DNA from: a virus
IMG/VR virus record: IMGVR_UViG_3300025011_000007
Strand: one strand, 5' to 3'
Length of the DNA stretch: 59,080 bases
Both the position numbers and the translations under genes were made by a program. Shown piece after piece: positions 1 through 59,080 of this stretch (within the stretch, counting starts at the first letter, position 1; every line of letters begins with the position of its first letter). The notes under the pieces were generated by a model, which worked only from the letters and a program-made list of their open reading frames with translations, did not search any database and was not told the DNA's origin.

Positions 1-127
1 ATTGAGCATAATAAATTTTTCAAGATTTTCTTTCTGGAAATTTGTTAAAGATGTTCTATTAAGCTTAATCTTGCATAAATGCTCTTTATCTGATTCTGAA
101 AGTTTTGAAACTTCTTCAGAATACAAA
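1..127. repeat. 127-bp terminal sequence identical to 58954..59080. This is an assembly overlap of a circular or terminally redundant genome with unique length 58,953 bp.
   Basis: Bases 1-127 (attgagcataataaatttttcaag...cttcagaatacaaa) recur exactly at 58954-59080. Confidence 0.95.
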
Positions 128-28956: not shown

Positions 28957-29115
28957 ATGGAAAATGAGAAAGATACAAAAACTGTCGTTATTAGGTACGA
29001 AACATGGGAACGCATAAACAAAATTTGCAATAAATATAAAATGGAAGAAGATGCTGTTGTTGCTGTTGCAATTAGTGATTTATATCTTGAACTTATAGCC
29101 AAAATGGATGATTAA
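28957..29115 (+). CDS. Counter-oriented 52-aa RHH-like protein (insert 5)
   Basis: MENEKDTKTVVIRYETWERINKICNKYKMEEDAVVAVAISDLYLELIAKMDD has a beta-strand plus two-helix pattern. Not in the ORF track (<60 aa). Confidence 0.45.
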   Translation: MENEKDTKTVVIRYETWERINKICNKYKMEEDAVVAVAISDLYLELIAKMDD

Positions 29116-29118
29116 AAA

Positions 29119-29202
29119 TTAGGCACAAAAAAGGCACTTAACGAAAAAACAGGGCATTACTGCTCTGCAAGATCATCAAGTGCCTAATTCTTGATTGTGC
29201 CT
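29119..29202. promoter_or_regulatory. Four copies of an AGGCAC motif, two direct and two inverted (nested inverted repeat)
   Basis: aggcaca 29121-29127, aggcactt 29132-29139, aagtgcct 29178-29185, tgtgcct 29196-29202. Confidence 0.45.
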
Positions 29203-29213
29203 TTATGTATTTT

Positions 29214-29270
29214 AACCAGTCAGGCGATAAGGCGGTCGCTTTTCGGGAGCTAACCTAGACTGGTTTTTAA
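29214..29270 (+). terminator. Long hairpin plus T-run, terminator for the plus-strand insert
   Basis: aaccagtc (29214-29221) / gactggtt (29258-29265), followed by ttttt. The loop is GC-rich and contains an inner gcga/tcgc stem. Confidence 0.45.
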
Positions 29271-29271
29271 A

Positions 29272-29577
29272 TTATCCTAAATATTTACTGGGGATGCCAT
29301 GTAAAATCCTGTCAGCATAATTATTTTCCATTTGTAAGCGTCTTTTTTCTCTTGTTTCTTCTCTTCTTTGTTTATTTTTTACATTATGACGATTAGTTTG
29401 CTCTGATTGCCATTTGTAATACTCGGCAACATCAATAAATATTTTTCTACGGACCCTCTTAATGCATTTATCGAAGCCGGTGATGTCAGAATAAAATATC
29501 AAACTTCTAACGCCACCAATGTTTCCATATATTTTTTCTGCAAACTCTTTAACCGTCATTTGTTTTTTGTCTTCCAT
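29272..29577 (-). CDS. Small basic DNA-binding-like protein (excisionase/HTH_17-like N-terminus)
   Basis: MTVKEFAEKIYGNIGGVRSLIFY... followed by a basic tail KNKQRREETREKRR. Confidence 0.4.
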   Translation of the reverse strand: MEDKKQMTVKEFAEKIYGNIGGVRSLIFYSDITGFDKCIKRVRRKIFIDVAEYYKWQSEQTNRHNVKNKQRREETREKRRLQMENNYADRILHGIPSKYLG

Positions 29578-55616: not shown

Positions 55617-55661
55617 TTATCAGGACTTTAAAAAGCTCTTTTTGGGGTGTATAATATAATT

Positions 55662-55821
55662 ACTGGAGTATTCAACTGGCTTTGTTCCATAAAGTTGAAT
55701 AAGATTGTCAAGCTAGCAATGATAATCTGGTAAAAGCCTTATGGCATCCTCCGGTTCCTGTTCCAACTCAAAACAGGTTAGGTAACCAAGACCGCCCTGA
55801 AATATGGGTGGTTTTTGTTTT
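55662..55821 (+). ncRNA. Candidate ~160-nt sRNA, from promoter to intrinsic terminator
   Basis: -10 tataat at 55650-55655. Stems 55670-55677/55693-55700, 55702-55710/55720-55728 and 55757-55762/55772-55777. Unpaired CCUCC at 55748-55752. Terminator accgccc/gggtggt (55791-55812) followed by UUUUGUUUU. Confidence 0.45.
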
Positions 55822-56044
55822 ATAAAATTCATCAGAAAACCTTTCTATCTATTTCTTGAACATTACTATTTTTTATTTATGTCATTTAATATTTTTTTAA
55901 ACAAGACTCCTTTAGCTTTTTCTTCTCCAACTTTTTTAATCAATTTCTCATAAAAATTCCGCACGTCAATTTTCGCAATAGATTTTTCCATTCCTTGACA
56001 CCTTCCAGCTTAAATGCTATCTTTTTAAAATATTCAAATTAAAA

Positions 56045-56090
56045 GGGATAAGACTTGTTTACAACCCACGTCTTATCTTCTTTTTTGTTT
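56045..56090 (+). terminator. Intrinsic terminator of a second very short transcript
   Basis: gataagac (56047-56054) / gtcttatc (56070-56077), then ttcttttttg. TTGACA (55995-56000)-17 nt-TATCTT lies upstream. Confidence 0.5.
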
Positions 56091-56339
56091 ATTCGCAAGC
56101 AAATTAATCACCAACCTTTCTCAAAACATTAAAAATAAAGAGAAAATACACTTGATTTTCTCTAAAACCCTTATAAAACATGAAAAAGAGTATCAAAACA
56201 TAAATCTATCTGCAAGGTTTTGATTAAATTAATTTATAATTTTTGTGTATAATATTGTTTACGATTCATGTATAACAATGATTTATACCTATTTTTACAC
56301 TTTGTAATATAATAAACTCCATAAATAGTACATTTTGAA

Positions 56340-56702: not shown

Positions 56703-56748
56703 TTGAAAGCATAACATACAAAATGCTATGCTTTCAATTTCTTTTTAC
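56703..56748 (+). promoter_or_regulatory. Perfect 11-bp inverted repeat plus T-run just downstream of a TATAAT (56692-56697): operator or leader terminator
   Basis: ttgaaagcata (56703-56713) / tatgctttcaa (56727-56737), followed by tttcttttt. Confidence 0.5.
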
Positions 56749-58758: not shown

Positions 58759-59080
58759 TTAATTTACGGGCTTTGTACGCTCGGAAAATAAGGTTTTAAA
58801 CATATCTTTTGGTGGTGGTGATACTAAAAACTTATCAACTTTCGATTTTTCCTGAAATTCCCTAATTTTTTTCATACGAGCATTATAATAAATATCAATT
58901 TTTTCTTGCTTATAGTAAGGTTCTTTAGTGTTTATAACCTGTATTTCTGAATCATTGAGCATAATAAATTTTTCAAGATTTTCTTTCTGGAAATTTGTTA
59001 AAGATGTTCTATTAAGCTTAATCTTGCATAAATGCTCTTTATCTGATTCTGAAAGTTTTGAAACTTCTTCAGAATACAAA
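58759..59080 (-). CDS. 3' part of the junction-spanning HTH/initiator-like gene (see 1..666)
   Basis: The ORF reaches the window end. 58954-59080 duplicates 1-127 and is in frame with the ATG at 666. Confidence 0.55.
   Translation of the reverse strand, partial: LYSEEVSKLSESDKEHLCKIKLNRTSLTNFQKENLEKFIMLNDSEIQVINTKEPYYKQEKIDIYYNARMKKIREFQEKSKVDKFLVSPPPKDMFKTLFSERTKPVN
58954..59080. repeat. Second copy of the 127-bp terminal overlap
   Basis: Exact identity to 1-127. Confidence 0.95.

Follow-up and report, generated by a model that had tools for sequence, protein, structure and literature searches.

Small RNAs of the 3'-UTR type, such as DapZ and MicL of enterobacteria, have their terminator in common with the upstream mRNA and their own promoter near the end of the gene. 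Phage 'morons' are accessory cassettes that are bounded by a promoter and a factor-independent terminator. Short countertranscripts have also been described in phages: the sar RNA of P22 (68/69 nt) pairs with the ant mRNA, and the OOP RNA of lambda (77 nt) is antisense to cII (PMC12197685). By analogy, 3'-UTR-type sRNAs and these countertranscripts appear to be the closest known kinds to the locus that is analyzed here.

This locus is a gap at positions 55617-56339 of a 59,080-nt stretch of phage DNA (hereafter the window, meaning the whole stretch that was analyzed). A first-pass annotation, made from the letters of the window, had proposed two small-RNA candidates in the gap, each running from a promoter to a terminator: candidate 1 directly behind the upstream gene, and candidate 2 near the middle. 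Our preferred reading, to which we assign a probability of roughly 0.5, is that the gap is a convergence zone of two transcription units, in which a predicted structured RNA closes an XRE-MNT-HEPN operon and may also be a ~160-nt sRNA.

Genome and flanking genes

Sibling contigs of the window are found in groundwater metagenomes of the Rifle aquifer projects (ENA ERZ909595, ANAN16-1 scaffolds, and JGI and Logan assemblies). The two ends of the window (1-127 and 58954-59080) overlap by 127 nt and one Logan contig spans the junction; the phage genome is therefore circularly assembled, with a length of ~58.95 kb. It encodes a T4-type large terminase, a Mu-like portal and head protein, ClpP, RecT, a YqaJ-like nuclease and methylases, and most of its genes carry strong Shine-Dalgarno sequences. 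The terminase is only ~55% identical to that of the nearest cultured phages. No integrase, transposase or partition protein was detected by Pfam among the 20 larger ORFs that were run, and the whole window encodes at least four XRE/cI-like and two RHH-like regulators. Elsewhere in the genome, a match to the int-alpA RNA (Rfam RF02996; 29200-29265, minus strand; 46 bits against a gathering score of 35.8) sits just upstream of the Mu-like portal gene, and the windows around it (29081-29280) are the most structured of the whole genome.

A rough gene call, which accepted ORFs of 50 aa or more if their codon usage was gene-like, leaves no gap larger than the 723 nt of 55617-56339; the second largest measures 429 nt. 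The description of the region as coding-poor is correct in this sense but needs qualification, as gene callers put two minus-strand ORFs of 41 and 39 aa inside it and the 41-aa ORF scores as gene-like. To the left of the gap lie an XRE gene and then a tightly coupled MNT-HEPN-like pair. Homologues of the second protein of this pair bear the Pfam HEPN domain. The Atlas predicted model of the first matches NTP_transf_2 clusters (TM 0.6-0.7), and judged on that model the protein resembles minimal nucleotidyltransferases. The right flank is formed by a minus-strand gene for a cI/XRE-like protein of 97 aa. Beyond it, in the divergent promoter region between this cI-like gene and a rightward operon, lies an inverted repeat (56703-56737; 15-nt arms, 93% complementary) that is likely an operator or a leader hairpin.

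Contigs from independent assemblies end at the same points in the gap (55770, 55845, 56246 and 56295-56304), and are aligned at 99.9-100% up to those ends. These common ends suggest that the assembly graphs branch there, and perhaps that strain-level mosaic junctions flank the 55770-56304 segment on both sides.

A strand-specific predicted RNA fold behind the HEPN gene

A promoter-like TTTAAA-17-TATAAT (55627..55655, plus strand; 10/12 matches) starts 11 nt past the HEPN stop codon, and its -10 box is the TATAAT to which the first-pass annotation had pointed at 55650-55655. By itself this site is weak evidence for a promoter, because such sites are no commoner here than in shuffled sequence (locally 14 sites are present and 13.4 expected; over 20 kb, 69 are present and 96 expected); the hexamer TATAAT alone occurs 121 times in the whole window. 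A transcript starting ~7 nt past the -10 box would begin at 55662, which is the first base of the closing helix (P1) of the fold described below.

At the other end of candidate 1 is a predicted intrinsic terminator (55784..55821, plus strand) with a G+C-rich stem that includes two G-U pairs, an 8-nt loop and UUUUUGUUUU. Its hairpin (55788-55815), which is followed by TTTTTGTTTT, comprises 10 pairs, five of them G-C, and the site is listed first among the 17 terminator-like sites in a scan of 39.1-59 kb. When it is folded alone the terminator reaches -16.9 kcal/mol (z -4.9) on the plus strand versus -9.4 on the minus strand. The earlier view that candidate 1 is closed by a strong intrinsic terminator is thus well founded, in that the G+C stem, short loop and U-tract expected of one are all predicted, and on the plus strand only. 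The terminator scan lists nothing from the HEPN stop codon up to the structured element. On the minus strand, no terminator turned up in the interval that separates the 41-codon gene from the HEPN gene.

The sequence of candidate 1 (55662-55821, plus strand) has a predicted folding energy of -51.3 kcal/mol (z -4.27), which was equaled by none of 200 dinucleotide shuffles. The reverse strand reaches -39.4 kcal/mol only, so that the plus strand is better by ~12 kcal/mol, and four G-U pairs exist on the plus strand only. On its exact ends, candidate 1 lies ~3.8 sd below the GC-adjusted mean of 2,948 windows of this genome, although this figure is helped by the choice of ends, and windows that are not registered to them give z values of -2.1 to -2.4. 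Genome-wide, the int-alpA region alone is more structured. Candidate 1 is also an island of 40% G+C between flanks of 22-28%.

In the minimum-energy fold, a four-way junction closed by ACUGGAG/CUCCGGU is followed by a hairpin and then by the terminator. The predicted junction domain (55662..55755, plus strand) has pair probabilities that are mostly 0.9-1.0. It is built from P1, in which the first seven bases pair with CUCCGGU, P2 (55669-77/55693-701), P3 (55702-10/55720-28, with one G-U) and P4 (55736-38/55743-45). The hairpin that follows it, P5 (55757..55777, plus strand; CCUGUU/AACAGG), has a 9-nt loop and pair probabilities of 0.76-0.92. Folded by itself, the 94-nt junction domain reaches -28.9 kcal/mol on the plus strand versus -20.7 on the minus strand. 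All three stems that had been proposed by eye (55670-77/55693-700, 55702-10/55720-28 and 55757-62/55772-77) are part of this fold, with pair probabilities of 0.76-1.0.

The same fold contradicts a further proposal, namely that a single-stranded CCUCC (55748-52) could mask Shine-Dalgarno sequences. Positions 55749-52 are predicted to pair with the 5' end of the RNA at a probability of 0.97-1.0, the probability of their being unpaired is ~0, and opening the CCUCC in candidate 1 costs 6.4 kcal/mol. A duplex scan of the RNA's loops against 98 translation-initiation regions of the phage yielded nothing above shuffled controls, and the idea of trans targets in the phage thus found no support there. 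An anti-Shine-Dalgarno sRNA with a free CCUCC seed was rejected on both grounds, as the CCUCC is paired and no target rises above the shuffles. Within the phage, neither a second copy of the RNA nor any complementarity to it extends beyond 12 nt.

The only SNPs inside candidate 1 among the seven sibling contigs are 55678 G>A and 55716 G>A, which occur together. The first lies in the loop of P2 and the second in the loop of P3, and two loop SNPs are too few to serve as evidence.

Search for relatives of the element

Searches of Rfam (4,227 families) with the 59 kb, with 1.3 kb and with 171 nt, at gathering thresholds and with E up to 10, returned terminator-like chance matches only. The best match at the locus scored 21.9 bits against a threshold of 47 and covered only the terminator, and the Rfam comparison that had been recommended therefore assigns the locus to no family (Rfam 15). 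ARAGORN found no tRNA or tmRNA, and blastn against phage records found nothing. Exact-pattern scans with three pieces of the gap gave no match in viral contigs or JGI metagenome contigs, and a covariance model of the element (R1) gave none in 30 fetched loci and four whole viral records. The seven sibling contigs are 99.7-100% identical; no relatives of the element were found outside contigs of this identity, hence no covariation or conservation was seen.

The flanking genes extend this comparison. The HEPN and the cI-like protein each have near-identical copies; all other relatives that were found for them are distant and sit in other contexts. The nearest phages by RecT (68% identity) lack the whole accessory island. 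The first-pass annotation would have counted absence of the region from close relatives against its own proposal; such an absence is seen here, but in a weak sense, since the sole relatives that could be reached are without the entire island.

Other MNT-HEPN cassettes (52-56% identity) occur in a second phage lineage, in rumen genomes and on one viral contig. In the five such cassettes whose DNA was examined, the next gene follows directly after HEPN. A search with a HEPN alignment in metagenome, genome and viral collections added seven more loci, and the element was present in none of them. The closest HEPN homologues, at 56% identity, are P0007 (on ENA contig ERZ27257202, 4,734 bp) and P0002 (on ENA contig ERZ27257204, 1,751 bp). 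No gene is called after HEPN for 1.4 kb on the contig of the former and for at least 0.7 kb on that of the latter, and one of the two homologues lies behind a cI-type repressor gene. The rumen cassettes (L020 2908-3249, L025 1900-2243 and L026 1903-2244) follow the RNase P RNA gene at a distance of ~450 nt and have a ZorA-like/OmpA pair on one side and an MmeI-type restriction-modification gene on the other, a setting that looks like a defence island next to rnpB.

Taken together with the folding statistics, the predicted RNA structure is real and statistically unusual, and it is confined to one phage population. The main rival to our reading accepts this structure and denies its function: the terminator would be that of an ordinary accessory cassette (a moron), accompanied by a non-functional spacer, its hairpin would be the sole part of importance, the upstream structure would be incidental or a relic, and no discrete sRNA would be made. 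The promoter-genes-terminator layout of this region is that of phage accessory cassettes, and an element that has no relatives, that is absent with its island from the nearest phages by RecT, and that has no counterpart at other MNT-HEPN cassettes is what this explanation would lead one to expect. The chance frequency of the promoter boxes fits it equally, as do the contig ends at 55770, 55845 and 56246-56304, with their hint of mosaic junctions. It accounts less readily for a 94-nt domain that folds independently and preferentially on one strand, for a closing helix that begins exactly at the start predicted from the -10 box, and for the presence of a G+C island within AT-rich DNA. We consider it somewhat unlikely, while giving it more weight than any other competing explanation.

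Small open reading frames in the gap

The longer of the two called ORFs (55866..55991, minus strand) is a probable gene of 41 codons. Its codon score of 0.27 equals the median of true genes and was reached by none of 139 spurious ORFs, and it has a GGAAGG 9 nt before its ATG (Shine-Dalgarno at 56001-06, ATG at 55989-91), a Shine-Dalgarno sequence that is typical of this phage. Gene finders call it on all sibling contigs, whereas the 39-aa ORF is called on most. The predicted peptide is Lys/Glu-rich and soluble-looking. No relatives of it were found in 5.8 billion proteins, in PHROGs or in the Atlas, and no clear promoter for the gene was found. On its codon usage and Shine-Dalgarno sequence, the 41-codon ORF is probably a real gene, at odds a little better than even. 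A kinship of the peptide with the N-terminus of the cI-like protein, to which a 27-nt DNA repeat had pointed, was discarded when BLASTP gave no alignment. A conserved small protein gene that explained the conservation of the region would have spoken against the RNA candidates; the 41-codon ORF may well be a small protein gene, but it lies outside candidate 1 and is without relatives.

The shorter ORF (55713..55832, minus strand) is doubtful. It consists of 39 codons antisense to the terminator and to P3-P5, and its codon score of 0.09 is ambiguous, with 4% of true gene windows scoring as low or lower and 6% of spurious ORFs scoring as high or higher. Its sole matches in 1.84 billion representatives are low-complexity repeat proteins. 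Judged on these scores, the 39-codon ORF is probably spurious, an artefact of the G+C-rich RNA element. A coding test by comparison of frames is uninformative here, as it is dominated by stop codons in the off-frames.

These ORFs are the basis of a second alternative, in which the minus strand codes for protein: the 41-aa and the 39-aa ORF would belong to one small operon that lies behind the cI-like gene, and the RNA structure would be a side effect of the coding. Both ORFs are called on siblings, the 41-aa ORF has the codon usage and Shine-Dalgarno sequence of a gene, and the G>A at 55716 changes no amino acid of the 39-aa ORF. The difficulty lies with the 39-aa ORF, which has an ambiguous codon score and no real relatives, and which would have to hold a strong terminator for the opposite strand. 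The fold, moreover, is better by 12 kcal/mol on the plus strand, and by our estimate ~3 ORFs of ~40 codons are expected by chance in 723 nt. We regard this alternative as unlikely.

A putative facing promoter and the AT-rich right part

Candidate 2 begins, as the first-pass annotation had noted, with TTGACA-17-TATCTT (55995..56023, plus strand), a promoter-like site that has a perfect -35 box and also a TG-n before its -10 box. Of the 69 promoter-like sites in 39.1-59 kb, 60 are listed, and no other of these 60 has a perfect -35 box. The -35 box and spacer of this putative promoter overlie the Shine-Dalgarno region of the 41-codon gene on the opposite strand.

The terminator that was proposed for candidate 2 fared less well. 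The hairpin in question (56044..56090), which is formed by GGGAUAAGAC/GUCUUAUC(U)UC, is preceded by an A-run and followed by a T-run. Its loop is 15 nt long, beyond the 8 nt that the terminator scan allows, and the scan accordingly does not list it. It is moderately stable, at -14.8 kcal/mol on the plus strand (z -3.3 to -3.6) and -13.0 kcal/mol on the minus strand (z -1.8). This hairpin could end a plus-strand RNA of ~60 nt, or could act on minus-strand transcripts. The predicted RNA (56030-56090) overlaps only the leader of the 41-codon gene, whose Shine-Dalgarno sequence and ATG lie under the promoter.

Further to the right there is a 9-bp AT-rich hairpin (56120..56163, minus strand). The stem that had been reported exists, but its arms are at 56139-47/56155-63 and not at 56148-72; it is followed by UUAUUUUUAAUGUUUU on the minus strand only. 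With a folding energy of ~ -8 kcal/mol it resembles shuffled sequence (z -0.9 on the minus strand), and it lies ~175 nt behind the cI-like gene. Judged from its sequence and position, it may be a weak minus-strand terminator of the cI-like transcript. The remainder of the gap (56164..56339) is an AT-rich spacer of 19-23% G+C behind the cI-like gene. It contains a second copy of GTGTATAATAT at 56245-55 and TGTATAA boxes at 56246 and 56269, and several assemblies break at 56246-56304. By estimate, the 11-nt repeat and the repeated boxes are at about chance level for the local base composition.

This AT-rich part is the main attraction of a third alternative, in which the gap holds a DNA-level site such as an attP, a dif-like Xer site, a replication origin or a packaging site. 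The stretch 56100-56339 with its repeated TGTATAA and TTGTTTAC boxes, and the assembly breaks at 56246-56304, would suit such a site, but repeats at about chance level carry little information. The attachment site that the first-pass annotation had entertained finds no support, in view of the lack of an integrase or recombinase among the 20 larger ORFs (Pfam), of any tRNA-like piece, and of a dif-like 28-mer in the gap, the best matches to which lie elsewhere and have at least 6 mismatches. An origin or packaging site would be expected in other parts of the genome, given the replisome-organiser-like gene at 41.5 kb, a kind of gene that usually carries the origin in known phages, and the terminase genes at 30-32 kb. 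A DNA-level site is therefore quite improbable.

Least probable of all is a type I toxin-antitoxin system (the first-pass annotation had mentioned type I/III antitoxin-like RNAs), with a toxin encoded after a structured leader by a hydrophobic 49-aa plus-strand ORF (55804-55953) and an antitoxin supplied by convergent antisense transcription: the ORF is Phe/Leu-rich and has its ATG within a hairpin that follows a highly structured leader, but its codon score of -0.09 is non-coding (29% of spurious ORFs score as high), it has neither a Shine-Dalgarno sequence nor a PHROG match, its hydrophobicity is as expected for an ORF antisense to a Lys-rich ORF in AT-rich DNA, the canonical U-tract after the hairpin is such that transcription should stop there, and the 41-aa peptide is Lys/Glu-rich rather than hydrophobic.

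A model of the gap as a convergence zone

We return to the reading that we prefer, in which two transcription units converge in the gap. The basis of a promoter-to-terminator unit here is sequence and thermodynamics only, and on that basis two parts of the first-pass proposal stand, namely a strand-specific structured unit (candidate 1) and a consensus promoter (candidate 2), whereas the free CCUCC does not; membership of an Rfam family and targets in the phage found no support either. We infer that these RNAs are made, as well as their ends and their roles, as follows.

The structured RNA (55662-55821) would be the 3'-terminal part of the XRE-MNT-HEPN accessory operon. Given the -10 box directly after the HEPN stop codon, the same sequence could also be released separately as a ~160-nt sRNA that has the terminator of the operon in common with it, in the manner of 3'-UTR-type sRNAs. 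A paired 5' end at one side and a terminator at the other would give a stable RNA. As there is no minus-strand terminator between the 41-codon gene and the HEPN gene, any transcript of the opposite unit that read through would be complementary to this RNA over its whole length.

In the middle of the gap, the putative 41-codon minus-strand gene would be faced by the consensus plus-strand promoter. A ~60-nt transcript from this promoter (56030-56090) would run antisense to that gene's leader, and firing of the promoter would interfere with leftward transcription. The right third would be an AT-rich spacer with a weak, terminator-like hairpin on the minus strand behind the cI-like gene.

If the RNA of candidate 1 is made, it would be one more phage sRNA or 3'-UTR element beside a toxin-antitoxin-like defence cassette, in this case in an uncultured groundwater phage, which would be useful for annotation and unsurprising. 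A bolder proposal is that the junction domain is a new structured RNA that works with the MNT-HEPN pair, as a decoy, substrate or regulator of the HEPN ribonuclease or of the nucleotidyltransferase, and that it has relatives in the gene-free DNA after the two closest HEPN homologues; we think this very unlikely. The discovery of relatives with compensatory changes beside other MNT-HEPN modules would nevertheless raise the interest of the element, because we know of no RNA partner for the MNT-HEPN system.

Comparison with known systems

On its sequence, candidate 1 is plausible as a fairly ordinary small-RNA candidate. Like DapZ and MicL, it has a -10 box that directly follows the final gene of an operon, past its stop codon, it finishes at what would be the operon's terminator, and its predicted length is ~160 nt. 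It differs from them in that its body is predicted to be a closed four-way junction and not an open seed, and in having no conserved seed, known target or relatives. The degree of structure that is predicted for it is comparable to that of int-alpA (RF02996) in the same genome; unlike int-alpA and other phage and mobile-element RNAs in Rfam, it matches none of the 4,227 families.

The cassette as a whole resembles a moron, with XRE-MNT-HEPN genes in an island that is absent from related phages, and with the strongest terminator of the neighbourhood behind them. What sets it apart from a moron is the additional, well-folded 94-nt domain between the stop codon and the terminator.

For candidate 2, the comparison is with sar and OOP. 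As in those systems, a strong promoter would lie opposite a small gene beside a repressor gene and would produce a short RNA, predicted here at ~60 nt, that ends in a hairpin and a U-run. In contrast to sar and OOP, to which it has no sequence similarity, the predicted RNA covers the leader upstream of the Shine-Dalgarno sequence and only its promoter overlaps the ribosome-binding site, and its hairpin, with a 15-nt loop, falls outside the terminator criteria. The two candidates would thus stand closest to different known kinds, candidate 1 to the 3'-UTR-type sRNAs and candidate 2 to the short phage countertranscripts.
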